28,416 nt of DNA from a virus (taxonomy: Duplodnaviria > Heunggongvirae > Uroviricota > Caudoviricetes), in IMG/VR virus record IMGVR_UViG_3300045988_053559, positions 1-28,416 of that record, one strand, 5' to 3'. The notes under the pieces are model-generated. The model did no database searches. It saw nothing but the letters and a program-made list of their open reading frames with translations, and was not told the origin of the DNA. The position numbers and the translations under genes were made by a program. This document shows, piece after piece, positions 1 through 24,301 of the stretch (the first letter of the stretch is position 1; every line of letters begins with the position of its first letter).

Positions 1-48
1 CGAGATGCTCAGGAGTCTCGTGGGCTCGGAGATGTGTATAAGAGACAG
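1..48. other. Illumina Nextera library adapter (P7 tail CGAGAT, 8-nt index-like GCTCAGGA, GTCTCGTGGGCTCGG, Tn5 mosaic end AGATGTGTATAAGAGACAG); technical artefact
   Basis: Exact adapter and mosaic-end string read at positions 15-48, preceded by an index-like octamer; the reverse complement sits at the other contig end. Confidence 0.9.
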
Positions 49-1744
49 TCGTTGCCCAGGCCAGATCGGCGTGGCTGGCTTCTTCGCTGCGGCTGGCTTC
101 ATAGGTCGGGCGGTTGCCGCTGGCGGTGGTGGCGCGACGGATTGCCATGAATGACTGCGCAATGTCGATGTGCCCGGCGTCAAACTCCAGACGGCGGTGG
201 CTGATAATGTCGTAGGCCTTGAGTACCAGGGCGTTTTTAACATTGGGGTTGTAGACAAACTCCCGGACGGCAGGAAAGAATGCTTTCACGTTCTCATAAA
301 CCCCGTGACCAACGCCGGTTGAGTCGATACCGATATAGGTCACGTTGTACTGTTCGGTGAGTTTTTTGATGGCGTCAGCCTGGGCGCGGAAGTCCATCCC
401 GCGCCACTGGTGACGCTCAAGAATGCGGAACTTACCACCCGGCACGGCTGGCGGAGCCACCACCACGCATCCGGCACTGTCGCCGTTCTGCGTACCTTTT
501 GCCGGGTCATAACCGATCCACACTTCGCGCCAGCCAAACGGGCGCAGGGCCAGTGCATGAAAGTCGGTCCAGACTTCCCAGCTGTCCACCATGCACGCCT
601 GCAGTTCGCTGAGCGGGAACACGGACGCGAGATCGTCCACGAACTCGCACATCAGCAGGTTCTGGTATTCGTCCGGGCTGTACTCCATGCGTAGCTGGTC
701 GAGGTCGAACAGGTTACAGCCGCCGCGCACCGCATCTTCCACGGTGACTATCTGGCGGTATTGCCCGTCTGCGCACAGCAGGCCGGGGGCCAGATTGCTG
801 TGGGACAGGTCGATGTCCACCTTGTCAGCTTTGTTGCGTCCACGGTTGAACAGCGCACCGGACCAGAACGGATAAGCACTGTGGGTCAGGCTGGATGGCG
901 TGGAAAAATAGGTTTGTCGCCATTTTTTGTGAATAGCCATCCCGGAAGCCACTTTGCGCAGCTCCTGGAATTTCGGTATCCAGAAATATTCATCCAGATA
1001 CAGGTTGCCGTGATAACTCTGGGCCGTGCGGGCATTGGTGCCGAGGAAGTAAAGCGTGGCTCCGTTAGGAAGCACCATCGGATCGCCTTTTAGCTCCACC
1101 TCGACTTCTTTGGCGAAGTCGATGATGTATTGTTTAAAGACGTGGGCCTGAGCCTTACTGGCAGAAAGGAAAATCTGGTTACGTCCGGTAAGCAGGGCGT
1201 CAATCAGGGCTTCACGGGCAAAATAGAAGGTCGCGCCGATCTGGCGTGACTTCAGCAGGTTGCGGATGCGGTTGGTTTTTCCGGCTTCCCACCAGTGGCG
1301 CTGGTAGTTGAACATGGAGGAATGGAAGATTTCTTCCAGCTTCTCAATCTGTTCATCAGTGAAAACGTTCTTTTCCGGCTGACGACGCGGGCCTTTGTTG
1401 CGGTTGGCGACGTTAGGGTTTAAGTCGGCTTCGTTGCCGCCATTGTTAAACTTGCCGATCCGCGCGTGGCGCTCAGACTGGCGCGCCAGCAGGTCAATCT
1501 CTTTGAAATCTTTCCCTTCTTTGTGCTCCTTCATGATGAGCTGGCAGTAGCGTGCGGCGGTGGTGAGCTGCATCTGATCCAGCGGCCCATAGTCACCCCA
1601 CTTGTCGCGTTTTTTCCAGCTGTGAACGGTTGCAACTTTCTCGCCCAGCATTTCAGCAATGCGGGCTACGCGGTATCCCTGAAAGTACAGCAGCATGGCC
1701 TGCCGACGGGGATCGAGATCTGCGGGTGTCAGTGTGGTGTTCAT
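49..1744 (-). CDS. P: Terminase large (ATPase) subunit, P2 gpP-like; 3' end truncated by the contig/adapter boundary
   Basis: Minus-strand ATG at 1744..1742, open frame to the adapter with no stop (hence absent from the ORF track). Translation MNTTLTPADLDPRRQAMLLYFQGYRVARIAEMLG... Divergent from O as in P2. Confidence 0.8.
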
Positions 1745-1790
1745 GGCACAAACCTACAGCCTTGAATGAAGGCTTTCCCCGCCTGCGGTT

Positions 1791-1808
1791 TGTGTGGTTG
1801 TCGGTACA
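1791..1808. promoter_or_regulatory. TGT-N12-ACA dyad in the P/O divergent intergenic region; candidate Ogr-type late-activator site for the P2-like late promoters
   Basis: tgtgtggttgtcggtaca fits the P2 late-promoter dyad; centre lies 87 bp before the O ATG and 55 bp before the P ATG. Confidence 0.4.
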
Positions 1809-1886
1809 AATACCGCGCATTGTTTCACTGCCCCCATCACCGCAACCATAAGGCTCCAGTAAGTTTTTTCTAACGGAGCACGGCTC

Positions 1887-2720
1887 ATGACAGTGAAAGC
1901 AAAGCGTTTTCGCATCGGGGTGGAAGGTGCCACTACCGACGGACGTGAAATCCAGCGTGAATGGCTGGAACAGATGGCAGCCAGCTACAACCCGGCGGTG
2001 TATACCGCGCTGATTAACCTTGAGCACATTAAGTCTTATCTGCCGGACAGCACCTTTAACCGCTACGGCAAGGTGACGGCGCTGTTTGCTGAAGAAATCA
2101 CGGAAGGTCCGCTGGCGGGCAAGATGGCGCTGTATGCCGACGTTGAGCCAACGGAGTCCCTGGTGGAGCTGGTGAAAAAAGGCCAGAAATTATTCACATC
2201 TATGGAAGTCAGCCCGAAGTTTGCTGATACGGGCAAAGCCTACCTGGTCGGCCTGGCGGCCACTGATGACCCTGCCAGTCTGGGCACTGAAATGCTGACA
2301 TTCAGCGCCAGTGCAGCCCATAACCCGCTGGCAAACCGCAAGCAGAATCCCGCCAATCTTTTTACCGCTGCAGAGGAAACGGTGATCGAACTGGAAGAAA
2401 TCCAGGAGGACAAGCCGTCCCTGTTTGCCCGTGTCACGGCGCTGTTTACCAAAAAAGAGCAGTCCGATGACGCCCGGTTCTCTGATGTGCATAAGGCCGT
2501 GGAGCTGGTCGCCACTGAGCAGCAGAACCTGAGCGCACGCACCGAAAAATCCCTGTCTGAGCAGGAAGAACGCCTGTCTGAGCTGGAGACTGCTCTGCAG
2601 GAGCAGCAAACCGCCTTTAACGAACTGGTGAATAAGCTGAGTCATGAAGACAGCCGCCAGGACTACCGCCAGCGTGCAACAGGCGGTAACGCCCCCGCTG
2701 ACACTCTGACCAATTGCTGA
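1887..2720 (+). CDS. O: Capsid scaffolding protein, P2 gpO-like
   Basis: ORF of 277 aa starting MTVKAKRFRIGVEGATTDGREIQREWLEQMAASYNP; GGAG ribosome-binding site 9 nt upstream; position between P and N. Confidence 0.9.
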   Translation: MTVKAKRFRIGVEGATTDGREIQREWLEQMAASYNPAVYTALINLEHIKSYLPDSTFNRYGKVTALFAEEITEGPLAGKMALYADVEPTESLVELVKKGQKLFTSMEVSPKFADTGKAYLVGLAATDDPASLGTEMLTFSASAAHNPLANRKQNPANLFTAAEETVIELEEIQEDKPSLFARVTALFTKKEQSDDARFSDVHKAVELVATEQQNLSARTEKSLSEQEERLSELETALQEQQTAFNELVNKLSHEDSRQDYRQRATGGNAPADTLTNC

Positions 2721-2736
2721 TGGAGCACAAAACCTG

Positions 2737-3795
2737 ATGAAGAAGAATACCCGCTTTGCTTTTAACGCTTACCTGCAGCAACTGGCACGTCTGAACGGTG
2801 TGGCAGTTGAAGAACTGTCCAGCAAGTTCACTGTAGAGCCGTCTGTGCAGCAGACGCTGGAAGACCAGATCCAGCAGTCCGCCGCTTTCCTGACGCTGAT
2901 TAACGTCACGCCAGTGACTGAGCAGTCCGGTCAGCTGCTGGGGCTGGGTGTTGGCAGCACCATTGCCGGAACCACTGACACCACCGCGAAAGAGCGTGAA
3001 CCTGTCGATCCGACGCTGATGGTCGATGTGGAATACAAATGCGAGCAGACCAACTTTGACACGGTGCTGACCTACGCGAAGCTGGACCTGTGGGCGAAGT
3101 TTCAGGATTTCCAGGTGCGTATCCGTGACGCCATCGTGAAACGTCAGGCACTGGACCGCATCATGATCGGCTTTAACGGCGTGAAGCGTGCGAAAACCTC
3201 CAACCGTAGTGAAAACCCGCTGCTGCAGGATGTGAACAAAGGCTGGCTGCAGAAAATCCGTGAGGATGCACCGGATCACGTCATGGGCAGCACCACCACG
3301 GGCGGCGAAACCACACCGGGTGCGGTGAAAGTCGGGAAAGGTGGCGAATATGCCAACCTGGACGCTGTGGTGATGGATGCGGTCAATGAGCTTATCGACG
3401 TGGTCTACCAGGACGATGACGATCTGGTGGTGATTTGCGGTCGTGAACTGCTGTCTGACAAGTATTTCCCGCTGGTCAACAAAGAGCAGGAAAACAGTGA
3501 AAAACTGGCAGCCGATATGATCATCAGTCAGAAACGCATGGGTGGCCTGCAGGCCGTGCGTGCGCCGTTCTTCCCGCCGAATGCGCTGCTGATCACCCGT
3601 CTGGATAACCTGTCCATCTACTGGCAGGAAGATACCCGCCGCCGTTCAGTTATCGACAACCCGAAACGTGACCGGATTGAAAATTTTGAATCCGTTAACG
3701 AAGCCTATGTGGTTGAGGACTACCGCTGCGCCGCACTGGTGGAAAACATCCAGATTGGTGACTTCAGCGCCGCCGCAGCAGAAACCGGAGTGTAA
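2737..3795 (+). CDS. N: Major capsid protein, P2 gpN-like
   Basis: ORF of 352 aa, MKKNTRFAFNAYLQQLARLNGV...; follows O in P2 order. Confidence 0.9.
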   Translation: MKKNTRFAFNAYLQQLARLNGVAVEELSSKFTVEPSVQQTLEDQIQQSAAFLTLINVTPVTEQSGQLLGLGVGSTIAGTTDTTAKEREPVDPTLMVDVEYKCEQTNFDTVLTYAKLDLWAKFQDFQVRIRDAIVKRQALDRIMIGFNGVKRAKTSNRSENPLLQDVNKGWLQKIREDAPDHVMGSTTTGGETTPGAVKVGKGGEYANLDAVVMDAVNELIDVVYQDDDDLVVICGRELLSDKYFPLVNKEQENSEKLAADMIISQKRMGGLQAVRAPFFPPNALLITRLDNLSIYWQEDTRRRSVIDNPKRDRIENFESVNEAYVVEDYRCAALVENIQIGDFSAAAAETGV

Positions 3796-9216: not shown

Positions 9217-9814
9217 TCTGCTGCCACCGGGTTCAACTTCACTGGAGCGCCGACTGGCGCAAACCTGTAGCGGGATTTCTGATCTGCAGGTGCCGCTGCG
9301 TGACTTGTGGAATCCGGCTACCTGTCCGGTCAGCTTCCTGCCTTATCTCGCCTGGGCGTTCTCTGTGGATCGCTGGGACGAGGGCTGGACAGAAAGCGTC
9401 AAACGCCAGGTAGTGAAGGATGCTTTTTATATTCATCAGCATAAAGGAACTACCAGTGCCGTGCGGCGGGTGGTGGAACCGTTCGGATTCCTGATCCGCA
9501 TTATTGAGTGGTGGCAGACCGGAGAAACACCGGGCACGTTTCGCCTGGATATCGGCGTGCAGGACCAGGGCATCACTGAAGATACCTATCTGGAACTTGA
9601 GCGGCTGATAAGCGATGCCAAACCATGTAGCCGTCACATGATCGGCATGTCCATCAATCTGCAGACCAGCGGTCCGCATTGGGTGGGGGCCGCCAGCTAT
9701 CTTGGCGAAGAAATCACGATCTATCCGTATATCAACGAAACAATTATTTCTGGCGGCACCGCGCATGAAGGCGGGGCGGTCCATGTTATTGACACAATGA
9801 GAGTGAATCCATGA
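9209..9814 (+). CDS. I: Baseplate protein, P2 gpI-like
   Basis: 201 aa; overlaps the J stop and the H start. Confidence 0.85.
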   Translation: MNSLLPPGSTSLERRLAQTCSGISDLQVPLRDLWNPATCPVSFLPYLAWAFSVDRWDEGWTESVKRQVVKDAFYIHQHKGTTSAVRRVVEPFGFLIRIIEWWQTGETPGTFRLDIGVQDQGITEDTYLELERLISDAKPCSRHMIGMSINLQTSGPHWVGAASYLGEEITIYPYINETIISGGTAHEGGAVHVIDTMRVNP

Positions 9815-11217
9815 GCACAAAATTTTATACCCTGCTGACGGATATTGGCGCGGCGAAACTTGCCAGCGCCGCCGCGCTCGGTGTGCCGCTAAAAATTACC
9901 CATATGGCGGTCGGCGATGGCGGCGGAGTATTGCCAACGCCAGACTCAAAGCAGACTGCACTGGTAAATGAGAAACGCCGGGCTGCGCTGAATATGCTCT
10001 ATATCGACCCGCAGAACAGCAGTCAGATTATTGCCGAACAGGTGATCCCTGAAAACGAGGGCGGTTGGTGGATACGTGAAGTGGGCTTGTTTGATGAGTC
10101 CGGGGCATTGATTGCCGTGGGCAACTGCCCGGAAAGCTATAAGCCGCAACTGGCTGAAGGTAGCGGGCGCACTCAGACCGTGCGCATGGTGCTGATTACC
10201 AGCAGCACGGACAATATCACCCTGAAAATCGACCCTGCTGTAGTGCTGGCAACCCGCAAGTATGTGGATGACAAGGCACTGGAGCTGAAGGTGTACGCGG
10301 ATGATCAGATGGCAAAACATCTTGCCGCACCGGACCCGCATTCACAGTATGCACCCAAAGAAAGTCCGACGTTTACCGGGACACCCAAAGCGCCAACGCC
10401 AGCAGCAGGGAATAACACCACGCAGATTGCGACCACCGAGTTTGTTCAGGCGGCTCTGACGGCTCTTATTAATGGTGCGCCAGCCACGCTGGACACGCTG
10501 AAAGAAATAGCCGCAGCCATTAACAATGATCCGAAATTCAGTACCACCATTAACAATGCGCTGGCACTAAAAGCGCCGTTGTCGAGTCCGGCACTCACCG
10601 GAACGCCAACCGCACCTACTGCGGCACAGTCGGTCAACAATACACAAATTGCCACCACGGCATTTGTGAAATCGGCGATTGCGGCAATGGTGGGTTCTGC
10701 ACCTGCGGCACTGGATACACTGAACGAACTGGCGGCGGCGCTGGGGAATGACCCGAACTTTGCCACGACAATGCTTAATGCACTGGCAGGTAAACAACCG
10801 CTGGACAATACGCTGACTAATTTGAGTGGAAAGGATGTAACTGGTCTTCTCACATACCTTGGTTTGGGAGAAGCGGCAAAGAGGAATGTGGGGACAGGAG
10901 AAAATCAGGTACCGGATATGAACAGCTTTGGTAACTCATTGACCGCCAATGGATACCAGAAATTACCTGGGGGGATGATTATTCAATGGGGGAGTTTTTC
11001 TGTCTCACCAACCGGAGGAAGTGTTGGAACAGTTGATATAACATTACCTGTAGCTTTCCCTGCTGCTTGTCGTTCGGTAAACGCTCTTATTTCAACTAAT
11101 GATCCTTCTGCCCGTTCTGTGGGCTTTGATATTGGAAGTACCAACAGAACTAAAATCAGATTTACTTACACTTCTGCTACAACAAATTCAATTTACTGGA
11201 TGGCTGTGGGGTATTAA
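9811..11217 (+). CDS. H: Tail fibre protein: P2 gpH-like constant N-terminal part (to about 10855) fused in frame to a variable receptor-binding C-terminal domain
   Basis: 468 aa; P2 H-like motifs MAVGDGGG, ESYKPQLAEGSGRTQ, NNTQIATT(E/A)FV, LNELAAALGNDPNFATTMLNALAGKQP. After LGLGE the sequence turns AT-rich and unrelated (..QKLPGGMIIQWG..). Confidence 0.85.
   Translation: MSTKFYTLLTDIGAAKLASAAALGVPLKITHMAVGDGGGVLPTPDSKQTALVNEKRRAALNMLYIDPQNSSQIIAEQVIPENEGGWWIREVGLFDESGALIAVGNCPESYKPQLAEGSGRTQTVRMVLITSSTDNITLKIDPAVVLATRKYVDDKALELKVYADDQMAKHLAAPDPHSQYAPKESPTFTGTPKAPTPAAGNNTTQIATTEFVQAALTALINGAPATLDTLKEIAAAINNDPKFSTTINNALALKAPLSSPALTGTPTAPTAAQSVNNTQIATTAFVKSAIAAMVGSAPAALDTLNELAAALGNDPNFATTMLNALAGKQPLDNTLTNLSGKDVTGLLTYLGLGEAAKRNVGTGENQVPDMNSFGNSLTANGYQKLPGGMIIQWGSFSVSPTGGSVGTVDITLPVAFPAACRSVNALISTNDPSARSVGFDIGSTNRTKIRFTYTSATTNSIYWMAVGY
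10847..10872. repeat. Left crossover-like site TTCTCACATACC-TT-GGTTTGGGAGAA (hix/gix-like imperfect palindrome); contains the 18-bp perfect repeat 10856..10873
   Basis: Reverse complement of 10856..10873 recurs exactly at 12704..12721; core resembles the AAACC-NN-GGTTT of Hin/Gin/Cin sites; lies at the constant/variable junction of H. Confidence 0.55.
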
Positions 11218-11219
11218 CT

Positions 11220-11651
11220 ATGGAAAAGACATATTATTTTAATCCCTCTGATTCGGGATTTTATATTTCACCAGATAGCCAAACCATTCCTGAGAACGCT
11301 ACGAAAATAAACTTTACTATTTATTCTGAGTTCGCAGGAGTTGCATGGCCTGATGGTAAAATACTTGGTTCAGATAAAAATGGTTTTCCAGCATGGCAGG
11401 ATGCGCCACCACTTACCAGCGAAGAATTAATCTCAATCGCTGAATCAAATAAACAGCGATTAGTTAATCAGGCCAACGAATACATGAACAGCAAACAATG
11501 GCCTGGTAAAGCGGCGATTGGTCGTCTGAAAGGTGAGGAACTGGCGCAATATAATTTGTGGCTGGATTACCTGGACGCACTGGAAATGGTCGATACTTCC
11601 AGTGCGCCAGATATTGAATGGCCTACGCCTCCGGCAGTACAGGCCAGATGA
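11220..11651 (+). CDS. G: Tail fibre assembly chaperone, P2 gpG/Tfa-like
   Basis: 143 aa; AT-rich N-terminal part; conserved Tfa C-terminus ...SSAPDIEWPTPPAVQAR. Confidence 0.8.
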   Translation: MEKTYYFNPSDSGFYISPDSQTIPENATKINFTIYSEFAGVAWPDGKILGSDKNGFPAWQDAPPLTSEELISIAESNKQRLVNQANEYMNSKQWPGKAAIGRLKGEELAQYNLWLDYLDALEMVDTSSAPDIEWPTPPAVQAR

Positions 11652-12225
11652 CATCCGGCGCGGTGCTGATATCTGTTGCCGTCACCGCGTCAATGTAATC
11701 CAGCACCGTGTTAAGTCGGCTGGTTTCTGCCTGCGTCAGATTCCGTCCGGCCTGTAATTTTAGTTGAATCAGATTGATGGAAGCCATTGCAGTATCAATC
11801 AGCGACTGGCGTTGTGCTTCTGCTGCATCGACTGCGGCGCTATGTTGTGCCTCGGTATCCGTCACCCATTTCTCACCATCCCATTTATCGTATGGTGTTA
11901 ACGGGACGATAGTGGTTGTATTATCAGGGTAATCACCCGGAGCTGTGATTTCTTTTGATTCTCCTGTTTCGGTGCTAAAGACGATTTCACCGCGATGGTC
12001 TGGCACATATTCCCATGAGTTAAAATCTGCAGAACGGCAGATTGCATAACCAGCTTTGTATGCGCCTGGAGCATCTAAACAGGAATATGCCGGAATGCCG
12101 ACACCAACAGCAAGATATTCAGTTGAAGCTGAAATATACTCCCGACTCACGACATCAAAGTTATAAACAGTAATTTCTCCTGCCATAGTGGCAATTAATT
12201 CACTGTTTAATTCTGCGTTATTCAT
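11623..12225 (-). CDS. Tail fibre assembly chaperone (Mu U-like), convergent with the + strand chaperone
   Basis: 200 aa; C-terminus ...STAPDVIWPVLPEA; start overlaps the upstream fibre stop (TAATG). Confidence 0.8.
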   Translation of the reverse strand: MNNAELNSELIATMAGEITVYNFDVVSREYISASTEYLAVGVGIPAYSCLDAPGAYKAGYAICRSADFNSWEYVPDHRGEIVFSTETGESKEITAPGDYPDNTTTIVPLTPYDKWDGEKWVTDTEAQHSAAVDAAEAQRQSLIDTAMASINLIQLKLQAGRNLTQAETSRLNTVLDYIDAVTATDISTAPDVIWPVLPEA

Positions 12226-13007
12226 TATGCAGCCCTCACAATATAGTTAAAAGCGACATTTCGTGGGCGTGTTTCATTCGCACCTGCAGGTTTAGTCGTT
12301 GCCGCAACAACACCACCCTCTGTAATAGCCGGGTTGGGAATTGGGTAATTATCGAAGTCAATGGCTGGAGACAGGGGCGTGATTTGTTTTAAAATCGTGG
12401 TGCCTGTAAAACTTCCCAGAGTCTGGTCGTTAGTTCGTGAAGTCCAGATTCCCCAATAGTGGTTATGACTGACAATCGCACCGTCCTGAAGCGTTAATAA
12501 TCCCCTTCCGTTATCCACTCCACGTCCGTCATCCCAGCCACGAATAAACTCACCGCGTAAATCAGGTAATTTATTTGTCGGATAAGCCTTTGCCAGTTCC
12601 GGGTATTCTTCAGCAGAAAAAGCTGCTCCGTTGCATTTCAGCCAGCCTGTTGGCGGAGTGGCTGAAGGCCACGGAACAGGCACACCAACAGGTAATGCTG
12701 AGCCTTCTCCCAAACCAAGGTTTTCGAGAGCTGTTTTCACCGTGCCATCCGATTTGATATCGCCAAACGGATTCTTGCGGCTTAACAGCAGCGCACGAAG
12801 CGCGGTAAGCAGCTGGTCATGCCGCCCCTTCTCCAGGCTGGCACCGGATGCCTCCACAACGCTGCAAAGCTCCTCCTGCAACATGTCAAAGTAGTCATCA
12901 TCCAGATCGGTGGCAGGCGTGCCGGTCTGGGGGTTACCACGGGTAAAACCGTTCTTACCCGCGCCGAACTTATCCTTCTGCGCGGTTTTCGTGTCTATAC
13001 GATGCAT
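12225..13007 (-). CDS. Tail fibre protein (Mu S-like) with tail-collar-type C-terminal domain
   Basis: 260 aa; N-terminus [21 protein letters not shown]...; LGLGE junction motif; ..[20 protein letters not shown].. collar-like motif. Confidence 0.8.
12705..12730. repeat. Right crossover-like site TTCTCCCAAACC-AA-GGTTTTCGAGAG, inverted partner of the left site; contains the 18-bp perfect repeat 12704..12721
   Basis: Reverse complement of 10856..10873; lies at the constant/variable junction of the minus-strand fibre gene. Confidence 0.55.
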
Positions 13008-13010
13008 GGA

Positions 13011-13595
13011 TTACTCCGGATATTTAAAAATCACATAGGTATGCGACGGGCAGAGTTTGTTAAGAACACACTCGACAACGGTGTCCCCCCAGAAGCGCAG
13101 CGCGGAATCACAGGGATCGCCACATGTCATCCAGGTGGTGTTGGTGGCGGCTGGCATGTTGACCTGCCAGTAATACCGCCATTCCGGCGCATTCACCGCG
13201 TCAGTACAGGCAGATGAGCAGGTGAACGTGCTTTTGTCGTATCGCGTGATGGTGGCGTCTGGTCTGCCCAGGGCAGCAAGCTGTGCAAGGTAAAAATCCT
13301 CATTGATGCCGCCCGCCAGGTTAACCTTCGCATCCAGCCGTTGCTGACGCTGGCGAAGGGTCTGCGTCCCTGCCGGAATACATTCATCCGGCAGGCCGCA
13401 CAGACGCTCCCAGCGGTTTATCAGTTCGGTGGTGGTGCGCGGATCCAGCTCCTGCATCAGGGCATCCGCACGCTGATGAACACGGGTTAATGACGGTGCT
13501 GCACCGGCAATCGCCGGATCGCTGGCTGACCACGCCGGACCGGGCGGCAACAGTGCTGACAACAGACGGATGTAATCATCGTTTGTCACGTCCAT
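13011..13595 (-). CDS. Tail/baseplate protein, Mu gp48 (R)-like, YmfQ family
   Basis: 194 aa; sits between the baseplate J-like gene and the tail fibre, as in Mu and e14. Confidence 0.65.
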
Positions 13596-14644
13596 GAAAT
13601 CGCCCCCAGAACCGCCAGTTCATTTTTCGCAATGGTGATATTGTCCGCCGGTGCAAGCAACTGATGGCTGTATTCCCCGTTCGCACCGGAAATCGCTTCA
13701 CTGATACGTGACACCTTCAGTTCTCCCTGCGGATAACCATCACGCAGCAGGAACGAACGCAACTCCGCGGTGATGGCAGCCCGTATTTCCGGTGTGTCCG
13801 GCGTCACACGGATATGAAAATCCACCGTATGTGCCACCGGCCTGAACACATACAAATCAGAGCCTGCCACCGGGGCCAGTGGCCCGATATGTTGTCTTGC
13901 CGCCGTTTCCGTTGATTCTTCCGGAATGGGATTAATCAGGTCACTGCTGGCAATCATCACACCGACAGTCCCCGTTCCCATCCAGTGTCGGTATGTCCAT
14001 GCGCGGGTAATGCCAGGCACTTCTTTAGCCCAGACGACATAGTCCCCGTCAGCCCCGCCCTGCGGCGTCCAGTAATACCGCTCAATGACGCGGGCGCGCC
14101 ACGTTTCCAGCTCTTCAGTATCAAATCCGCCTGTCAGGGTGTCAGCCACACCGGAAGACGGCAGACCATTCACCGGCGTGACCAGGATTAATGCCGTACC
14201 GTCGTCAGCGTTACCGACCGCACCTGCACTTGAGCAGGCGATCGGCACGCGCAGGACACCACCGGAGCTGATTGCATCGTCAGTTGTCGTGTACTGCACC
14301 AGGTCATCGCGCTGAATAACACTCCCGGCAGTCACCTTCAGGCCATCGCTGACACCTTCCCAGCGCATATACCCGCTGGCAACCGTGGCCCCCTTGCGCG
14401 GACACCGTTTCATCGCAGCATGTCGCGCCAGCCAGGACTCATCGCACAGGTCAGGCAGCATATTCATTGCCAGATAATCGATGTAACCGTAGACCATATG
14501 CAGCGCCGCCGCATACACCTTTGCCCGCACGTCTTCATCCATGCGCCGGAGCGTGTCGCTGACGTCCAGCCTGGCGAATAAATCGTTACGGAGCATACTG
14601 ATATTTTCTGCCAGCGTCGGGCGCTGAAATTCACTGTCCGCCAT
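13586..14644 (-). CDS. Baseplate J-like protein, Mu gp47 (W)-like
   Basis: 352 aa; position and size. Confidence 0.75.
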
Positions 14645-15059
14645 GCGTTATCGCACTCCACAGATCATCAAAAGAAATCATTACTGGTCCATCACGACGC
14701 CAGAGGGTGATACTGTTACCCAGCTCATTAATCCCGGTGCGGCGGATATCCAGATCAATACGGGACACCACGCCGTCATCAGTCATCCATTGCAGGCATT
14801 CGCGGATATATCCCCTTACCGTCTGCACCAGCTGATTGGTCAGTTTGCTGCGCTGAAGCAACCACAGTCGGGAGCCGTAACGGTCATTCTGTACCGCAGG
14901 CCAGGTATCCCCCCACCATCCCATCGGGACGTCGGCATTGTCATCAGGCTCCGCCCGCCGCCAGGTGAACAGGGAAATCACCACGGCGCGGGTCAGCGGA
15001 TCCAGCGGTGCGCTGGCGCAGGTGCGTTTACCGTTCACCGTCAGCCACAGTTCCATCAT
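14631..15059 (-). CDS. Baseplate protein, Mu gp46 (V)-like (gp25/GPW-like)
   Basis: 142 aa; overlapping neighbours in the baseplate operon. Confidence 0.7.
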   Translation of the reverse strand: MMELWLTVNGKRTCASAPLDPLTRAVVISLFTWRRAEPDDNADVPMGWWGDTWPAVQNDRYGSRLWLLQRSKLTNQLVQTVRGYIRECLQWMTDDGVVSRIDLDIRRTGINELGNSITLWRRDGPVMISFDDLWSAITHGGQ

Positions 15060-15604
15060 GCCTCCATCGCTTTATCAGGTTTGTCGGTGTTACTGCCCTG
15101 ACCGTTCTCTCTGTGACGATGCCCGTTATAGGCAAGCCGCATCGCTGACATGGTGGTGCCGCCGGAGTCGCACAGGTCTTTCACCTGTCCTGTCACTTCC
15201 AGGTCCATTTCAAAACGTGCCTTAGGCGCATTGCGAAACGTGATCGTTTTACCTGCACCGTCCACCACGATCCCCTCCCGGGTCAGCGTCACGGACTGCC
15301 CCTGATCGTCATAGACAGCCACCTCCCCAGTCTGCAGCCCTTTCAGGCGGTAGCGACGGTCCGACACCGTAACAACCACCGCATGAGAACGGTCGCCATC
15401 CGGAAACAACACCACCGCTTCCGCACCGCTGTTTGCCCTTGCGGTAAAACCGTAGGGTTCAAGATGTTCAACCCCGGCTTTGGGTTCACCGGCAATCAGG
15501 GACACATCCACGGTCTGACATTTCGTGGCGGCACTGATGCTTTTCACCACGGCCCGCCCAATCAGGCCGAGGAGTTGTCGCTGCATGGCTTCAATCGTCC
15601 TCAT
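15056..15604 (-). CDS. Baseplate assembly/spike protein, Mu gp45 (Q)-like
   Basis: 182 aa; ATGA overlap with the upstream gene. Confidence 0.7.
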   Translation of the reverse strand: MRTIEAMQRQLLGLIGRAVVKSISAATKCQTVDVSLIAGEPKAGVEHLEPYGFTARANSGAEAVVLFPDGDRSHAVVVTVSDRRYRLKGLQTGEVAVYDDQGQSVTLTREGIVVDGAGKTITFRNAPKARFEMDLEVTGQVKDLCDSGGTTMSAMRLAYNGHRHRENGQGSNTDKPDKAMEA

Positions 15605-16683
15605 CAGAACGGGTCCTCCTGTACTCTGGCTTTTTTCTTTTTCCGCGCGCCGGGGGCTTCGGGTTCAGGCAGATAAGCATCAGGCGGGCCGACACGGATT
15701 TCCGTCAGGGTGCCGTTCTGGTCCTGAGTAAACGTGACTTCCGAAACAAGCAGTTCGGTATTGTCGAAACCACAGACCGGATCAAAGACAATCACCCGTT
15801 GGTTGGGCTGCCACAGCGTACCGTTACCCTGTCGCCAGCCCTGCACCACATAGGTGGTTTCATCCGTCCGCGCCGCCCGTTGTCGGGCTTCAAAGTCCGC
15901 ACGGGCAATACAGCCTGCCCCCGTAGCCTGCCCTGTCTGCCTGATATACATCGGACGGTAACGGGCAATAAATGCGTCCTCTGTGCGGGCCCGCAGCGCG
16001 GTGGTGGTGGCCTCACCGAAATCATCGTCGTTTCCGGCACGCTGCCCCGCCACCTGGTAAACTGAAAACCGCTCCCGGATACTCTTCTCCGTATCACAGG
16101 AAAGGATGTTTTCCCCAAGTACCAGCGCGGTATGTGCCCGCGTTGAGCCAATACCACCAATCACCAGCCTGCCGTGCGGGTCGTCATAAGCCAGCGCCTG
16201 CTGCTGACCGAGTATTTTGTTGATCACCTCGATCACCGTTTCACCGTGATCAGGCTGGACATCCGGAATAACACCCGACGGCGCATCGCTGTTCACCACC
16301 TCAATGCCGAAAGGCGCAGCAAGCGCCTGCGCAATCTGTACCAGCGATCGTCCGTTAAACTGTGTCGGTTCGGCTGCACAGTCAATCAGGTCAGCAGTCA
16401 GACTACGTCCGGCAATACCGGTGATGACCGAACGGGCATCGTAACGAACGGGGGTCGCCTCCACCCAGCCGGTGATCACCAGCTCATCACCAATCAGCAC
16501 TTCCACTTTTGAACCGTTTTTAATGCGCGGCTGAAGCGTGGTGATACCCTCATCTCCCGGCCATTGGCGAGTGATCTCCACACTGAAATCCCGCGCCAGC
16601 CGTTCAATACCGGCACCGATGCGCACCGATGTCCAGCCATTCCACTCCCGGCCATTTACCCGTAGCGTGACATTGTCGTTCAT
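15604..16683 (-). CDS. Baseplate hub / late control D-like tail protein, Mu gp44 (P)-like
   Basis: 359 aa; lysine-rich C-terminus (RKKKKARVQEDPF). Confidence 0.7.
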   Translation of the reverse strand: MNDNVTLRVNGREWNGWTSVRIGAGIERLARDFSVEITRQWPGDEGITTLQPRIKNGSKVEVLIGDELVITGWVEATPVRYDARSVITGIAGRSLTADLIDCAAEPTQFNGRSLVQIAQALAAPFGIEVVNSDAPSGVIPDVQPDHGETVIEVINKILGQQQALAYDDPHGRLVIGGIGSTRAHTALVLGENILSCDTEKSIRERFSVYQVAGQRAGNDDDFGEATTTALRARTEDAFIARYRPMYIRQTGQATGAGCIARADFEARQRAARTDETTYVVQGWRQGNGTLWQPNQRVIVFDPVCGFDNTELLVSEVTFTQDQNGTLTEIRVGPPDAYLPEPEAPGARKKKKARVQEDPF

Positions 16684-18008
16684 TGCACTGGCACCTTCAG
16701 AGGGATCACCGGCACAAAGCCGGGATGCGTAATGGCATTACGCCGGATAATGTCCGCGTCACGCGCCGCGTTATCAAACCAGGTCGCCGCCAGCACCAGC
16801 GCGGGTAAAACCTCATCCGGCGTGCGCTGAATGATCCGTGCAGACTGTTCAAGGCGCGTGTTGATATCCGCATTCAGATCTGCTTTCACCCGGCGCAGCG
16901 CCAGAAACAGCGCATCACTGGTTGTACGGGACAACTCCTTATCAATTGCCGTATTCAGTGTGTCGCGAATGTCGGTCAGTTCTTCCCACGTTGGCAGGTC
17001 AACCGTGTTTTTCACCGCCGGTGCATTGTTCAGTGCCGGATGCGTGACAGAAGGCCAGCCGGTGCTCTGCGCGGGTGTTGTTGACTGCCCTACTGTGGCA
17101 TTCTGCATCACCGCGGAAGTTGTGGACGCAGGCAATCGTGTGACGGCATACGCCGCTTCGCTGATTGCGGTCGTACGAAGGGTGCTGGCAACCACGTTAC
17201 GCTGCTGCGTCGCCGTGGCGGTAGTTTTACTGTCCGTTTTCCAGACGCCGCGCGGTTGCAGATCGCTGCCGAGGCTGACACCGGAAAGCGTTTTGATCAT
17301 GGTGACCAGGTCGCTGGCGTTACCATAAAGGCGTTTCCCGGTACGCCACATTTTCTGCACCTGCTCAACGAAATTTTTGCCTGACGATGGTGGCGGCAGA
17401 AGTACCGAGATATCCCCCTGCAACAGCCTGGCGGCATCCGATACGGCAGAATCCACCACTTTCATCGCATCAGAAACATACCCAAGCATTGTGCTGGCAT
17501 TACCGACGACGTCGTTCTGCACAAAATCTGCCACGCCATCGATACTGAAACCACTGAAGCTGTCACTGATGCAGTCATCCAGTGCAGAACAGGATGACAT
17601 CAGCGTCTGCGCCGTCGCCGCACCTGAAGTGGGGTAAGAGAGTTCTCCCGCTTCGACAAACTTCAGGTCAAAGCGGACAATACGCCCTTCACTCTTCGAT
17701 GTGCTGACCCGAACTTCCCCGTCAACACAAACTTTCAGCTCACCGTAAGTCGGATGGACAAGCGTGCCGGGACCGGGTTTATTCAGCGCGTCAATCAGGC
17801 GATCGCGCTGGTCAAAGCAGTCATCTCCCACCACATAAGCTGTGATGGACGGGCGGAAAGTGATTTTCCCCAGGTCTTCGGTATAGGGTTTGTCGCGGTT
17901 CGGGTATTCGTGCGTTTCCACACGACGACCGGTTCCCGCACTTTCTTCTTCAACCTTAAACGGCACACCGCGAAATGACGCGTCCTGAAGTCTGTCTTTC
18001 CACGTCAT
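16680..18008 (-). CDS. DNA circulation protein, Mu gp43 (N)-like
   Basis: Track ORF 16680..18050; ATG 18008 (MTWKDRLQD) has a GGAG ribosome-binding site; 18050 and 18023 are alternative starts. Confidence 0.7.
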   Translation of the reverse strand: MTWKDRLQDASFRGVPFKVEEESAGTGRRVETHEYPNRDKPYTEDLGKITFRPSITAYVVGDDCFDQRDRLIDALNKPGPGTLVHPTYGELKVCVDGEVRVSTSKSEGRIVRFDLKFVEAGELSYPTSGAATAQTLMSSCSALDDCISDSFSGFSIDGVADFVQNDVVGNASTMLGYVSDAMKVVDSAVSDAARLLQGDISVLLPPPSSGKNFVEQVQKMWRTGKRLYGNASDLVTMIKTLSGVSLGSDLQPRGVWKTDSKTTATATQQRNVVASTLRTTAISEAAYAVTRLPASTTSAVMQNATVGQSTTPAQSTGWPSVTHPALNNAPAVKNTVDLPTWEELTDIRDTLNTAIDKELSRTTSDALFLALRRVKADLNADINTRLEQSARIIQRTPDEVLPALVLAATWFDNAARDADIIRRNAITHPGFVPVIPLKVPVQ

Positions 18009-18022
18009 ATAAACTCCGTACA

Positions 18023-18047
18023 TAAAAAATCCCACCGGAGTGGGACT
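18023..18047 (-). terminator. Terminator-like hairpin plus U-tract between tape measure and DNA circulation genes (possible attenuator)
   Basis: Minus-strand RNA AGUCCCAC-UCCG-GUGGGAUU followed by UUUUAU. Would lie inside the coding region if translation began at 18050. Confidence 0.3.
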
Positions 18048-18068
18048 CATTAACAGATTAATTTTTCA

Positions 18069-19904
18069 TTACCTGCCAAAGCGCGTATAGCCAACATCAT
18101 GGCTGACATCAAAACCGCTGGATCGCGTTTCCATAACCCGCATACCCGGAGGCGAATTCACAAAAGAGACCTTGATCTCACCATCAACTTTTGGCGCAGA
18201 AGCTTTGTTAATCATGAAGGGATTCGGGCCTGTGGCACCGGAGGCGTTGTTTGACTGAGCCGGATCTACCGCCTGATAAGGTGTGTATCCCCGTGCCGGT
18301 ATTCCCGTCCCATAAGCATCATAAGCACCCGCGCCCCACTGCGCAGAGTTAATGGCATCAACCGTGTCACCGGAACTGTCGGTAAACCACTCAATAATTG
18401 GCTTCAGTTTGTCCCACATATCCTGAAACCACTTAACAACCGGTCCCCAGTTATTGATTACTATCCCCAGCGGCGACCAGGCAAAAACCTTCTTCAGAAG
18501 TTCCCAGCCAGCCTCAAAATAAGGACCAATGGTTTCCCAGAGCTTCTTGAAATAAGGTCCGACAACATCCCAGTTAGTGATAATTAATCCCGCAGCCAGG
18601 GCTATCGCCGTCGCAATCATTCCAATCGGCGTCATCGACATGATCCTGCTGACAATACTGATGGCACCGCCAACGCCCATCAATCCCAGTTTCAGAATCG
18701 CAAGACCGGCAGCAAGCCCGACGACGCCGCGAATAACCCGGGGATTTTCATCCGCAAACTTCGTGAATTTTTCCCCTAACTCCCCCAGCCATTGCGTGAT
18801 ATTTTTGGCGTCACCAGAAAATGCGCCGCCAATAGCCGCAAGGCCGTTAGTTGCGGTCCCCGTCATTGCCTCCCACAGGTTGGACAGCGTACCAAGCTGG
18901 GCCTGAACACGTTTATTCAGGCTGGCCTGTTTATTCATCTTCTGCTGGATCTGATCGTAGCCATCCTTTCCTTTATCAATTAGTGCATTGACCACCTGAA
19001 GGGTTTCGGCATCATCACCAAATATTGCCTTAAGTACACCTGTTCGCTTAACGTCGGTCAGTTTTCGCAGCTTTGCCAGTTGCCTGAACATGTTATCAAG
19101 ACCGCCAAAACTTCCTTTGCCGTCAGTAAAATCGAGCTGTACCCCGAGTTTCTGGCGGGCCATGATTTTATTGACGTCCCTGATTTTCTTAACGCTTAAT
19201 CCGGACTGGATAACTTTTCGCAGGGCGTTACCTGCCGACTCCCCGTTCATCCCCATCTGATCCATCATGACGCTGATGGGGGCAAGGCTCTGTGCAGCCT
19301 GAAGACCGTCCTTGTTCACCATCTTCAGAACAGAGCTGGTTTTAGTGAAGAAGGACAACATGTTGGTATCGTCAACACCCAGATAAAACGCCTTCTGGAT
19401 AGTGTCGAACAGCCCCATCATGTCTTCTGACGCCGTTCCGGTAGCATCCTGCATCTTTGCAGCAAACTCAGCAGCCGCTTCCGGTGTTTTTTTCAGTTGT
19501 ACCGCAAGATAAGCTGTCGCTTTACCCACACCGCCAAGAATGTTTTCTGCCGGGATCCCCTGACGCACCAGCATCTGCATCATGTTCTGGAAATCAGCCG
19601 TTGTACCGGGTAGCTGGTTACCCAGGCCAATAGCCAGTTTATTGATGTCCTGAAAGCTCTTTCCGACCTCGCCGTTCGCATCCATCATGGCGACTTTCAG
19701 CCCGGTGGCGGCGTTTTCCTGATCGGCATAAGATTTCAGGGAAAGCGTCAGACCCGCTGCCAGTCCGCCACCAAGCGCCAGCCCACCCTGTGACGCTTCT
19801 TCCGCCTGGCGTTTAAATCCCCGGATTTTCTTTTGCATTTTCGACAGCGCGGGAGAAAGCCTGTCGACACCGGTGATCAACGCCTTAAGCTCAAATTCCG
19901 CCAT
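18069..19904 (-). CDS. Tail tape measure protein
   Basis: 611 aa; glycine/alanine-rich hydrophobic central segment; follows the frameshifted chaperone pair. Confidence 0.85.
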   Translation of the reverse strand: MAEFELKALITGVDRLSPALSKMQKKIRGFKRQAEEASQGGLALGGGLAAGLTLSLKSYADQENAATGLKVAMMDANGEVGKSFQDINKLAIGLGNQLPGTTADFQNMMQMLVRQGIPAENILGGVGKATAYLAVQLKKTPEAAAEFAAKMQDATGTASEDMMGLFDTIQKAFYLGVDDTNMLSFFTKTSSVLKMVNKDGLQAAQSLAPISVMMDQMGMNGESAGNALRKVIQSGLSVKKIRDVNKIMARQKLGVQLDFTDGKGSFGGLDNMFRQLAKLRKLTDVKRTGVLKAIFGDDAETLQVVNALIDKGKDGYDQIQQKMNKQASLNKRVQAQLGTLSNLWEAMTGTATNGLAAIGGAFSGDAKNITQWLGELGEKFTKFADENPRVIRGVVGLAAGLAILKLGLMGVGGAISIVSRIMSMTPIGMIATAIALAAGLIITNWDVVGPYFKKLWETIGPYFEAGWELLKKVFAWSPLGIVINNWGPVVKWFQDMWDKLKPIIEWFTDSSGDTVDAINSAQWGAGAYDAYGTGIPARGYTPYQAVDPAQSNNASGATGPNPFMINKASAPKVDGEIKVSFVNSPPGMRVMETRSSGFDVSHDVGYTRFGR

Positions 19905-20315
19905 GTGTGCGTTTCTCCTGCTCTATCCTGTTTGCCTGACTGACCAGCAAGGGAATTTCACTGATCGGCATATTCAGCAATTCGAAAGGATTAATGCGCC
20001 AGTAGCTGGCGCAGTCAAAGAAGCGATCAGTGAGGTATTCAGCCGTCAGGCCTGGAGGAAAAAACCAGCCACAAGCCACGCCGCTGCATTCAGGTCTGCC
20101 GGAGACATCTGGTCGACAGAGCTTTGCGGCACTTTCGCCAGCCGCACAATGTATTTCGACACCACATGCGCCAGAAGTCTGACTGACTCATCCTGATTCA
20201 TCTGGTAGGGATACCCCAGCTCGCGGACATCCTTCCCGGTGGGTTCATCAAACTCCAGTACGGAGAGTGTCTCGCCATGAGCAGTAATCGGTTTCTTTAA
20301 CTCAAGCTCTTTCAT
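19891..20315 (-). CDS. Predicted -1 frameshift fusion product of the tail assembly chaperone (lambda G-T analogue)
   Basis: Slippery heptamer T TTT TTC on the minus strand at 20058..20064; the -1 frame stays open for 55 more codons to 19891, overlapping the tape measure start. Confidence 0.55.
20046..20315 (-). CDS. Tail assembly chaperone (lambda G analogue, Mu gp41-like)
   Basis: 89 aa between tube and tape measure; ends ..WLVAGFFLQA. Confidence 0.75.
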   Translation of the reverse strand: MKELELKKPITAHGETLSVLEFDEPTGKDVRELGYPYQMNQDESVRLLAHVVSKYIVRLAKVPQSSVDQMSPADLNAAAWLVAGFFLQA

Positions 20316-20671
20316 TACTGGTAATCCCCTTCTTCACCGTGGAACTCAAGATCAACCGTGCCTTCTTCGGCATTATGGTTCGCTTCGCCGTGCAGCCAGG
20401 CAGACGACAGTACATAGACCTGACCGTTCGCCAGCTCGGCAGTGATGGTCATCTCATCAGACGAGGTGATTTTGCTTACCGGAAAATTCTTCGGCACCTT
20501 GAAGGTCCCTTTGACATAAGGCGCACGGTGAGTTTCCTTGCGGTCCACTGAACCGTCCAGGCCGATGATGTCATCGTTAACCGTTTTGTTCATGGGCACC
20601 TCAATGCCGCCGGTCAGCGATAGCTGCTGACCGTCAATTTTGAAATAACAGGTTCCCCCGATACGGGCCAT
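20315..20671 (-). CDS. Tail tube protein (Mu M-like)
   Basis: 118 aa, immediately downstream of the sheath gene. Confidence 0.8.
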   Translation of the reverse strand: MARIGGTCYFKIDGQQLSLTGGIEVPMNKTVNDDIIGLDGSVDRKETHRAPYVKGTFKVPKNFPVSKITSSDEMTITAELANGQVYVLSSAWLHGEANHNAEEGTVDLEFHGEEGDYQ

Positions 20672-22167
20672 TATGCAGACTCCTCTGAATACTGAAGACG
20701 GAACTGATTAACCACGGCAAAGACACGCAGCTGGTTAACATAGTCAGGCGGGAACAGCGTGTTCAGGCGGTTCGGATCGCTGGCATCACGCTCCACAACC
20801 AGGTACTGCTTAAACAGTTCGTAGTTTTCCACGATCCCCGCACGCTCAAGCTGACGGTAGGTTGCCAGCAGTTCCCCTTTGATCACCGCCGGGGTGACAA
20901 TCGCCTGACCGGGACCAAAGCGGGTACCGTCACTGGCAAGCTTGTGACGCCCGTACTTACTGGTAATGACGGATTTCAGTTTGCGCAGTACATACGCGCT
21001 GGTATGCAGCGTCTCACTGTCGAGGTAACTGTTATCCGCAACCCCGTAAGCGTTTTTCCTGTACGTGGTGACATCACGCTGAATGCGTAGTACCCCGCTT
21101 TCGACATACGCCGTTGCCACGCCATGAGACAGCAGGGTCTGTTGTTCGGTCATCGTGAACCGTTTCCCCTTCGGCGCAGGCAGCATACCCACCAGCTCAC
21201 CGGTCTGCGTGGGACGTGCCGGATCGTTGCGGATAAACACCGCTGCGCGGGCGGTACGGCTTGCCGCCAGCTCGTCGGCAGGCGTCTGGGTCTCTTTTTC
21301 GTACCCCGCCAGGGTAATGTGCTGCTGGTTAAACTGGTCACCTGCGGTCACCAGTTCTGACAGCGTGCCGATCTTTGCCGTATACACATGACCATACAGC
21401 TGACGCGCATAGCTCCAGCGACCGCTGGTATCGTTCATCTCGGTCACCAGCGTGTTAACGGAGGCCGTGTCGTTGAACGGCAGGCCGATATAATCAAACG
21501 GCTCATCCGCCATTGCAGCCACCGCGCCGGTGAGAACCGGAGCACCCGTTCCGGCGGTACCCGTCGCCACGGCAATCTGTACGCCCGCTGGCAGCACTTC
21601 GCCCCCACCAAAGCCGTAGTAATTGAGGCTGACAGGAATTTCATTCCCACAAAGCCCCTTATGACGCGCGGTCAGTGTGACCACGCCTGCCGAAGATGAA
21701 GCCATAAACGGCAGGGTCGGAACGGCATTGATGGCATCCTGGATACTGCTGGCAATCATCGTGACGTTATCGCCGTTAGTCACCGGTGCCTGCACGCGGG
21801 TACGTCCTACATACACATTCACCGTGCCGGTTTCGGTTGCCGCCCCGGTCACCGTCAGCGTAACTGTTGCCGCCGCACCTGTGGATTCAGGAACGGCAAT
21901 CACATACAGCTCGCCAAACGGGTCAGTCTGGCGATAAGCCTCGACCATACGCGCCAGCTGACTTCCCGCACCACAAATCTGGCGTGCATAGTCTGCCGAC
22001 GACATCAGTACCAGACTGTTGGCAACAATCTCTGCACCGTTATTGGCATGACCAATCAGCAGCGATGCTCCGCTGTCCTGTGCAGTATTCGCCGCCTGGT
22101 TATCCATTTCCGCATAAAACAACGGAACCAGCGTATTCGACGGAATGGTGTTAAAGCTTATCGTCAT
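20671..22167 (-). CDS. Tail sheath protein (Mu L-like)
   Basis: 498 aa; MTISFNTIPSNTLVPLFYAEMDN... Confidence 0.9.
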   Translation of the reverse strand: MTISFNTIPSNTLVPLFYAEMDNQAANTAQDSGASLLIGHANNGAEIVANSLVLMSSADYARQICGAGSQLARMVEAYRQTDPFGELYVIAVPESTGAAATVTLTVTGAATETGTVNVYVGRTRVQAPVTNGDNVTMIASSIQDAINAVPTLPFMASSSAGVVTLTARHKGLCGNEIPVSLNYYGFGGGEVLPAGVQIAVATGTAGTGAPVLTGAVAAMADEPFDYIGLPFNDTASVNTLVTEMNDTSGRWSYARQLYGHVYTAKIGTLSELVTAGDQFNQQHITLAGYEKETQTPADELAASRTARAAVFIRNDPARPTQTGELVGMLPAPKGKRFTMTEQQTLLSHGVATAYVESGVLRIQRDVTTYRKNAYGVADNSYLDSETLHTSAYVLRKLKSVITSKYGRHKLASDGTRFGPGQAIVTPAVIKGELLATYRQLERAGIVENYELFKQYLVVERDASDPNRLNTLFPPDYVNQLRVFAVVNQFRLQYSEESA

Positions 22168-22321
22168 CGGTGTTCACCTTTTTATTCACGCGCCGGATAT
22201 CACCCGCTGCTTCACGGCGCAGCCAGTAGTTGTTCTCGTCAACATTTCGCCCTTCGGCGGGCAAAAGGTCGCCGAGGGCAGGGTCAGGCACTGACCGCCC
22301 TTTAACAGGTTTGACAAACAT
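22151..22321 (-). CDS. Small hypothetical protein (56 aa) overlapping the sheath start
   Basis: Hand-translated MFVKPVKGRSVPDPALGDLLPAEGRNVDENNYWLRREAAGDIRRVNKKVNTDDDKL; GAGGA ribosome-binding site; below the 60-aa ORF-track cutoff. Confidence 0.4.
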   Translation of the reverse strand: MFVKPVKGRSVPDPALGDLLPAEGRNVDENNYWLRREAAGDIRRVNKKVNTDDDKL

Positions 22322-22329
22322 GAGGATCC

Positions 22330-22899
22330 TCAGGAAGGAAGGGTTATTTCGGTGTGATGTTCGATATCGCCGTCAGGCCCGTTACCGGGCTCGAGATAAT
22401 CAACATCAATCGCCAGCGTTTGCAGTTCATCCAGACTGTTCAGATCATCCTGCTGGCGGGTATCGTCTTCAGTCAGCTCGCTGATGACCGAAAAATCGAA
22501 CTGATAAATCAGCTCATGACGATTCAGATCCAGCAGCGTGCCGCCGTCATAGGTAATCGGGTTACCGCACGCCTCCGGGTTCCAGCCCAGCAGAGCCTTA
22601 AAGAGCATCTGCCGGACATCGTCCACCACATCATACGAGGCAAACTGACCGCGCTCATCACGCCCGTTACTCAGTATGACAACCACGGAGAAACCCTCTT
22701 TCAGCTCCTGCCAGTAGTCGGTCTGGCTTTTGTTTTCTCCCGGAGAATCATCACCCGGTACAACATATGCCGCCGGGAGTTTCAGCTTTCCGACCTCCGG
22801 CAGATTTTTGAACTGGGCCGCGCCTGCAACCCGGTTTTCAAAATACGGACAACGGGCACGCAGTGCAGCAATAACAGGAGTCAGTTTCATCTGTGTCAT
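22330..22899 (-). CDS. Mu gp37-like neck/tail protein
   Basis: 189 aa; position upstream of the sheath. Confidence 0.55.
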   Translation of the reverse strand: MTQMKLTPVIAALRARCPYFENRVAGAAQFKNLPEVGKLKLPAAYVVPGDDSPGENKSQTDYWQELKEGFSVVVILSNGRDERGQFASYDVVDDVRQMLFKALLGWNPEACGNPITYDGGTLLDLNRHELIYQFDFSVISELTEDDTRQQDDLNSLDELQTLAIDVDYLEPGNGPDGDIEHHTEITLPS

Positions 22900-23393
22900 C
22901 GCTCCGGCTTCAGTGATTTACGCAATTCCCGCGCCAGAAAATAGCGTGTCCAGCTGCGGTTCTTTTCAAGCGTTTCCACCATGAAGTTATTACGTGGAGC
23001 CAGTCGCCAGCCGCTGCCACCGGATGCACCACGATGATGACTGCGACGACGCTTTGCCCCTCGCCTCACGCCATAGAACAAAAAAGCCGGATAAAAATCA
23101 CCGGTGATACGGCGGTTTCCCTCTCCATTACGCTGGTTAGGGGCTATACGTGCCATAAAACCAGGGCGATGTTTACTGGCTCTGGGTACCATGTAACCAA
23201 TCGAACGAGCCAGGCGTCCGGTCTGATAACCGGGGTTTTCACCCGGTGCCGACCGCGCACGGCGCATCACCAGCCGACGGGCATCACGCATATGACGCTG
23301 ACCAATCGTGACAAACGCCCGCCGGACACGGGCGCGGTTAAAGCGCATCTCCGCGGGCTGCTGAAAATCAACGTGCAAAAAGGAAGTCGTCAT
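22896..23393 (-). CDS. Virion morphogenesis / tail completion-type protein
   Basis: 165 aa, basic; position between head-closure and tail genes. Confidence 0.5.
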   Translation of the reverse strand: MTTSFLHVDFQQPAEMRFNRARVRRAFVTIGQRHMRDARRLVMRRARSAPGENPGYQTGRLARSIGYMVPRASKHRPGFMARIAPNQRNGEGNRRITGDFYPAFLFYGVRRGAKRRRSHHRGASGGSGWRLAPRNNFMVETLEKNRSWTRYFLARELRKSLKPER

Positions 23394-23778
23394 TGTTGCC
23401 TCCGTGACTCTGCCTACATTCGCCCAGCTCCGTACACTCCAGCAGCAGAAAGCGCCGCGCCCCGTTCAGATCGCGCTGACGTTTCACCCGGTACACACTG
23501 TCACCGCAGACCACCTCATAATCAGCGGTGATCCCCCGGCGGTAACGAATAGTGATGTAATGGGTGATGGCGTCCCCGGTCTGCGCGGTTTCCTGCCAGG
23601 TGGTGGCACTGGTCTGGATAACCTTCGCCCATGTCCGGAACGTAACCGGGTATTGAGGCTCCACGCCAAAGTTATCCGCGGGCATATCCACCCGCAGGCG
23701 GATCAGGACGCGTTTATTCAGTTCACCGGGGTCCGGCAGAATGTAGGTTGCGCTGGTCTGCGCCTGACGAATTTTCAT
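23368..23778 (-). CDS. Head closure / head-tail adaptor protein
   Basis: 136 aa; position downstream of the head-tail connector. Confidence 0.55.
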   Translation of the reverse strand: MKIRQAQTSATYILPDPGELNKRVLIRLRVDMPADNFGVEPQYPVTFRTWAKVIQTSATTWQETAQTGDAITHYITIRYRRGITADYEVVCGDSVYRVKRQRDLNGARRFLLLECTELGECRQSHGGNNDDFLFAR

Positions 23779-24098
23779 TGCGGAAAGTACCTGTACGGGC
23801 CGACAAGCCAGCCAAAACTCTGCGGCATGTCGAGTTTCTCCACTTCCGTAACCGACGAGCGGTTTTCGTAAAAATGGCTGATAAGCATCAGCATCCCCAG
23901 ACGAATATCATCCGGCAGGTGCAGCCCGTCCGGATCGCTGTCCGGAATGGTTTCATCCGGTGCATAGAGCTTCCGGTTCAGATACGTTTCCGTCCGCTTT
24001 TGTGCCGCACATGCCAGCAGTTGCAGATGGCGGTCATCAGTATCGAAATCCTCATCCAGCCGGAGTTGGGCTTTAATCTCTTCCATTGTCAGAAGCAT
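23775..24098 (-). CDS. Head-tail connector protein (gp6-like)
   Basis: 107 aa; position after the capsid gene. Confidence 0.6.
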   Translation of the reverse strand: MLLTMEEIKAQLRLDEDFDTDDRHLQLLACAAQKRTETYLNRKLYAPDETIPDSDPDGLHLPDDIRLGMLMLISHFYENRSSVTEVEKLDMPQSFGWLVGPYRYFPQ

Positions 24099-24100
24099 AC

Positions 24101-24301
24101 TCAGCCCTCTTTACTGGTCGTGGCTTTTTTCTCTTTTGCCGCTTTACTGCTTTTTGCACTGATTCCGCGCTCTGCTAACCCGGCCTGAAGTGCAATCTCC
24201 TGCACCCGGGCAGGAAGCGCCCCGTCGTCATACTCACCGGCCCGAATGACCTCAACACGCATACCGTCCGGTGACCATTTCAGATCTTGTTTCAGGATCA
24301 T
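24101..24301 (-). CDS. Small lysine-rich hypothetical protein
   Basis: 66 aa ORF between capsid and connector genes; function unknown. Confidence 0.35.
   Translation of the reverse strand: MILKQDLKWSPDGMRVEVIRAGEYDDGALPARVQEIALQAGLAERGISAKSSKAAKEKKATTSKEG

Follow-up and report, generated by a model that had tools for sequence, protein, structure and literature searches.

The 19-nt mosaic end of the hyperactive Tn5 system is part of commercial systems for Tn5 mutagenesis in vitro and in vivo; the outside end of IS50 departs from it at 3 positions. It was derived from the outside and inside ends of wild-type Tn5/IS50 and serves as the hyperactive replacement of the wild-type IS50 ends (PMC4248319). 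The oligonucleotide Tn5ME-B, GTCTCGTGGGCTCGGAGATGTGTATAAGAGACAG, corresponds to Illumina FC-121-1031 and was printed in Picelli et al. 2014 (PMC4248319). In the Nextera XT v2 index table, the entry N704 consists of CGAGAT followed by GCTCAGGA, which is read as TCCTGAGC (PMC7589761). Adapter contamination of this kind is known from the contig ends of public assemblies, including IMG/VR, GTDB and GenBank/RefSeq (for example NC_049392.1).

The window analysed here, a stretch of 28,416 nucleotides, was identified by exact protein match, its proteins occurring on one contig alone, as the entire contig ERZ652841 NODE_68_length_28416_cov_4.423257, whose SPAdes-style name records a k-mer coverage of about 4.4. 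Compared with the Nextera i7 N704 adapter and Tn5ME-B, the window is identical over 48 nt at its 5' end and over 34 nt at its 3' end, with the same order of P7 tail, index, arm and mosaic end and the same direction towards the insert. In contrast to the full N704 oligonucleotide, the 5' end holds just the last 6 of the 24 P7 nucleotides, and the 3' copy ends before the index. Since the window is the whole contig, both adapter copies lie at true contig ends. It is practically certain that both ends of this metagenome contig of low coverage are Nextera adapter from Tn5 tagmentation that was not trimmed off, and not biology; no observation in our analysis contradicts this explanation.

Adapter sequence at the two contig ends

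The terminal elements and the genes that they interrupt are as follows, each with the evidence for its assignment.

1-6, plus strand: last 6 nt (CGAGAT) of the P7 flow-cell primer tail, the full P7 being CAAGCAGAAGACGGCATACGAGAT (published oligonucleotides; NC_049392.1, which carries the full P7)
7-14, plus strand: i7 index N704, GCTCAGGA in primer orientation, read as TCCTGAGC (published index table and primer)
15-29, plus strand: Nextera Read-2 or i7-side arm, 15 nt, GTCTCGTGGGCTCGG (published oligonucleotide)
30-48, plus strand: hyperactive Tn5 mosaic end, 19 nt, AGATGTGTATAAGAGACAG, facing the insert (published oligonucleotide)
49-1744, minus strand: P2 gpP-type large terminase gene, 3'-truncated, codons 1-565 of 588 retained (domains and protein alignment)
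27634-28382, minus strand: HK97/SfV-type large terminase gene, 5'-truncated, residues 330-577 of 577 retained (domain and alignment)
28383-28401, minus strand: second copy of the Tn5 mosaic end, CTGTCTCTTATACACATCT on the plus strand, facing the insert (reverse complement match)
28402-28416, minus strand: second copy of the i7-side arm, CCGAGCCCACGAGAC on the plus strand, after which the contig stops before the index (reverse complement match)

Bases 1-48 of the window read CGAGAT, GCTCAGGA, GTCTCGTGGGCTCGG and AGATGTGTATAAGAGACAG, in that order. An earlier note made from the letters of the window had described this stretch as an i7-side Nextera adapter layout enclosing an index-like octamer, and the layout now stands as exact identity to published oligonucleotides, base for base. 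Specifically, bases 15-48 match Tn5ME-B exactly (PMC4248319), and bases 1-35 are exactly the 3' 35 nt of the primer Ad2.4_TCCTGAGC, CAAGCAGAAGACGGCATACGAGATGCTCAGGAGTCTCGTGGGCTCGGAGATGT (PMC10440357), a string that turns up in 37 papers. The octamer proved to be more than index-like, as GCTCAGGA is the real catalogue index N704, listed in PMC7589761 and present in the primer of PMC10440357. When up to three mismatches were allowed, 0.01 copies of the 19-mer mosaic end were expected in shuffles against two observed, both exact; the corresponding values for the 15-mer arm, again with mismatches allowed, were 0.06 expected and two observed, both exact. Such expectations, set against two exact copies of each element, exclude chance. 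By simple arithmetic, the per-position probability of an exact 48-nt match is about 1e-29.

The second copy, which was absent from the list of the earlier note, occupies 28383-28416 and is the perfect reverse complement of bases 15-48 (34 nt). The i7-side adapter is therefore the same at both contig ends, its mosaic end points inward and it is of the Read-1 read-through type; no copy of the i5-side arm occurs anywhere in the window. The adapter lengths are unequal, with 48 nt at the 5' end against 34 nt at the 3' end; the k-mer sizes of SPAdes were weighed as a cause of this difference and gave no consistent explanation. In a separate line of analysis, adapter-mediated chimerism within the contig was considered and rejected, because no internal copy of the mosaic end, the B-arm or the A-arm was found in the contig even with 2-3 mismatches tolerated.

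A natural Tn5 or IS50 element inserted in the terminase gene would offer a biological origin for these sequences, and there is partial resemblance only, owing to the descent of the mosaic end from IS50 ends. However, the 19-mer is the exact synthetic hyperactive mosaic end, a hybrid that is neither natural end, and the window contains no IS50 body or any other IS50 sequence, no transposase and no paired junctions, each supposed insertion having a single junction in the contig where a 9-bp target-site duplication would flank both sides; outside the mosaic end lies Illumina primer. Beyond the adapter, the contig follows phage structural genes colinearly throughout, which leaves no room for a transposase. 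We therefore regard a natural element as virtually impossible, and the statement of the earlier note that this is not a real Tn5 insertion agrees with the synthetic mosaic end, the Illumina primer outside it and the missing transposase.

Homology breakpoints and the two interrupted terminase genes

The boundaries between adapter and phage DNA were located by comparison with E. coli. When bases 1-3000 were searched by megablast in a set of 28 Gb comprising 5,426 complete E. coli genomes, 1,241 records matched, and the alignments listed all begin at base 49, none of them extending into bases 1-48. In the pairwise alignment of the left end, identity is 100% from base 49 on, and the bases before 49 are unrelated. 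At the right end, 1,627 complete E. coli records match, and the alignments listed all end at 28382. The 48-mer itself has zero matches in the same 28-Gb set of 5,426 genomes, and the adapter/genome junction of the contig has none in IMG/VR, JGI metagenomes or GTDB genomes.

Both breakpoints fall within large terminase genes. The left one starts with an ATG at 1744, contains the domains Terminase_5, Terminase_6N and Terminase_6C, and matches the P2-type terminase ATPase subunit WP_001098431.1 (588 residues) over its residues 1-565, with 564 of 565 positions identical; with this, the truncation of a P2-like terminase gene at base 49, proposed beforehand, is placed to the base. Its frame runs open through the adapter, adding 16 spurious codons with no stop. 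As the contig ends there, the adapter takes the place of the last 71 nt of the gene (23 codons and the stop). The exact sequence of the resulting 581-residue protein with its adapter-coded tail was not found in the protein collection. The right terminase, which carries a TerL_nuclease domain, is cut by the 3' adapter at residue 330 of 577. Here the stop of the frame is supplied by the adapter, and a GTG at 28374 is called mechanically as the start; the 246-residue product is the version held in the source database.

The contig has a perfect inverted repeat of 34 nt at or close to its two ends, which could also be taken for biological inverted terminal repeats where a linear phage genome physically ends, and completeness tools of the CheckV type indeed accept contig-end repeats of at least 20 bp as such repeats (PMC8116208). 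Against this, the repeat is a synthetic oligonucleotide, its 5' copy is offset by 14 nt, and the terminase genes are interrupted at both ends. The contig consists of structural modules of two phages and contains no replication or lysogeny genes, and related phages and prophages run on past the breakpoints without the repeat. True terminal repeats are accordingly as good as impossible. Given the 14-nt offset at the 5' end, a test for inverted terminal repeats that works on flush ends would probably not fire for this window.

The same adapter in other public sequences

The identical 48-mer, index included, was found on at least 120 contigs of GTDB genomes. Among the matches listed, its hosts comprise Thermococci, Thermotogaceae, Collinsella, Flavobacteriales, Streptomyces, Marinobacterium, Candidatus Taylorbacteria and others. 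None of the 125 copies among these listed matches is more than 172 nt away from a contig end; in every one the mosaic end points inward, and no two share an adjoining 9-mer (125 different 9-mers). Many of the adapter-bearing contigs among them are low-coverage SPAdes NODE contigs with a coverage of 4-7. Moreover, 38 of the 125 listed copies are flush with the contig end and exactly 48 nt long, stopping after CGAGAT as in the window. The recurrence of exact 48-nt ends suggests a systematic cut-off in an assembler or trimming step.

A similar picture was obtained in IMG/VR, where the 34-mer occurs on at least 120 contigs. Among the matches listed, the distance to a contig end is at most 42 nt for 123 of 124 copies, and the mosaic end of these points inward; different Nextera indexes occupy the octamer between constant flanks, and CGAGAT stands before it in 64 of 67 cases. 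Adapter at both ends of one contig, as in the window, was seen in 4 of 120 IMG/VR loci and 5 of 120 GTDB genome loci among the matches listed. The sole internal copy among the 124 listed belongs to IMGVR_UViG_3300010234_000504 (190,684 nt), where it lies at 3701-3734 of the locus, at a distance of over 8 kb from the end of the locus; this copy may be the trace of a chimeric join that the adapter mediated.

Besides hundreds of contigs in public databases, the adapter is found in at least 45 phage records of GenBank, among which is a RefSeq reference. The RefSeq record is that of Escherichia phage ESSI2_ev239 (NC_049392.1 / LR597637.1), which at 29127-29203, at the record end, has the complete P7, GCTCAGGA, the arm and the mosaic end, then an 11-nt homopolymer run. 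Its full primer shows what lies past the CGAGAT of the window in the complete oligonucleotide. In the same record, the annotated hypothetical protein HYP19_gp37 (28959-29141) extends into the adapter.

The same sequence at contig ends of Archaea, Actinomycetota and coliphages, with a different neighbour each time, is a reagent and not biology. The earlier view that the 48 bases are not biological is upheld by the exact oligonucleotide match, the break of homology at base 49 and the presence of the same 48-mer on unrelated organisms. In sequence, terminal position and inward direction, the window shows no substantive difference from the contamination in the other public assemblies. It is one more instance of known contig-end adapter contamination and has no biological novelty.

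The distribution of the 48-mer also bears on the suggestion that the ends are real DNA of a mutagenised E. coli prophage carrying an engineered mini-Tn5 or EZ-Tn5 insertion. Transposons of this type also use mosaic ends (for the mosaic end itself, see PMC4248319). Nevertheless, no marker cassette lies outside the mosaic end; the sequence there consists of the B-arm of Illumina, an index from the catalogue and P7. The identical 48-mer also occurs at the ends of contigs from Archaea and from many bacterial phyla, and it is absent from every one of the complete E. coli genomes searched. In addition, an inward mosaic end on either side of the contig would make the phage DNA itself the cargo of the transposon. 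Taken together, an engineered insertion is extremely improbable.

For the adapter explanation, the steps can be outlined as follows. Tn5 loaded with the ME-A and ME-B oligonucleotides cut the DNA at the present bases 49 and 28382, where it attached the mosaic end of 19 nt and the arm to the fragment, and index PCR then supplied the i7 index N704 and P7, N704 presumably being the index of this very library. Where the insert was shorter than the read length, Read 1 would have continued into the mosaic end, the B-arm, the index and P7, and the reads were left untrimmed or incompletely trimmed of adapter. A SPAdes-type assembly at a k-mer coverage of 4.4 would then have retained the read-through reads at its outer edges, wherever no further genomic coverage was available. 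Read-through combined with a coverage gap is the mechanism that we infer; the terminal position of the copies, their inward direction and the low coverage given in the contig name are observed.

The value of the finding is purely practical, as the feature is a laboratory and assembly artefact of no biological interest. Bases 1-48 and 28383-28416 (48 and 34 nt) need to be removed before annotation or comparison. If they are left in place, one terminase gains 16 false C-terminal residues and the other a false GTG start, both genes having been cut at arbitrary Tn5 sites; the perfect 34-nt near-terminal inverted repeat could pass for a genome terminus; and the untrimmed adapter can seed spurious matches between unrelated contigs.

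The prophage-prophage join within the contig

ERZ652841 was assembled at about 4x from adapter-bearing reads, which calls for caution with its other contigs and with a join between two prophage types inside the present one. The contig interior consists of a P2-like (Peduoviridae) structural module from 49 to about 10847 and an SfI/SfII/SfV-like module at 12730-28382. The two modules are arranged head-to-head (region 9811-13007) across one 1.9-kb invertible tail-fibre cassette. This cassette (10848-12729) has a 26-nt inverted site at either border (10848-10873 and 12704-12729) and contains a gp53-like tip, two tail-fibre assembly genes and a collar-type tip. The constant parts of the P2-like and the SfV-like fibre genes both read into the cassette. 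No invertase gene is present in the contig; in intact prophages of the P2-like or the SfV-like type, a serine invertase gene follows the cassette.

Among the 5,426 complete genomes, the same join was found in one, that of E. coli FDAARGOS_1287 (NZ_CP070071.1, 81202-87052), which is colinear with the whole window and has the cassette flipped. The left cassette junction has no match in IMG/VR. Cassette copies of the P2 type and the SfV type are 99.25% identical to each other, with exact runs of up to 655 nt, and the mismatches of the window cassette to the two types fall in the same central bins, a pattern that speaks neither for nor against a mis-assembly. A real product of recombination between prophages is a possible origin of the join, to which we give a little less than an even chance. 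Such identity and such long exact runs, together with 4x coverage, make a short-read mis-join through a 99%-identical 1.9-kb repeat equally plausible. If the join is real, a single cassette that lacks a neighbouring invertase gene would give C-terminal tips and assembly chaperones to the tail fibres of two different phages, and its inversion would exchange both at the same time.
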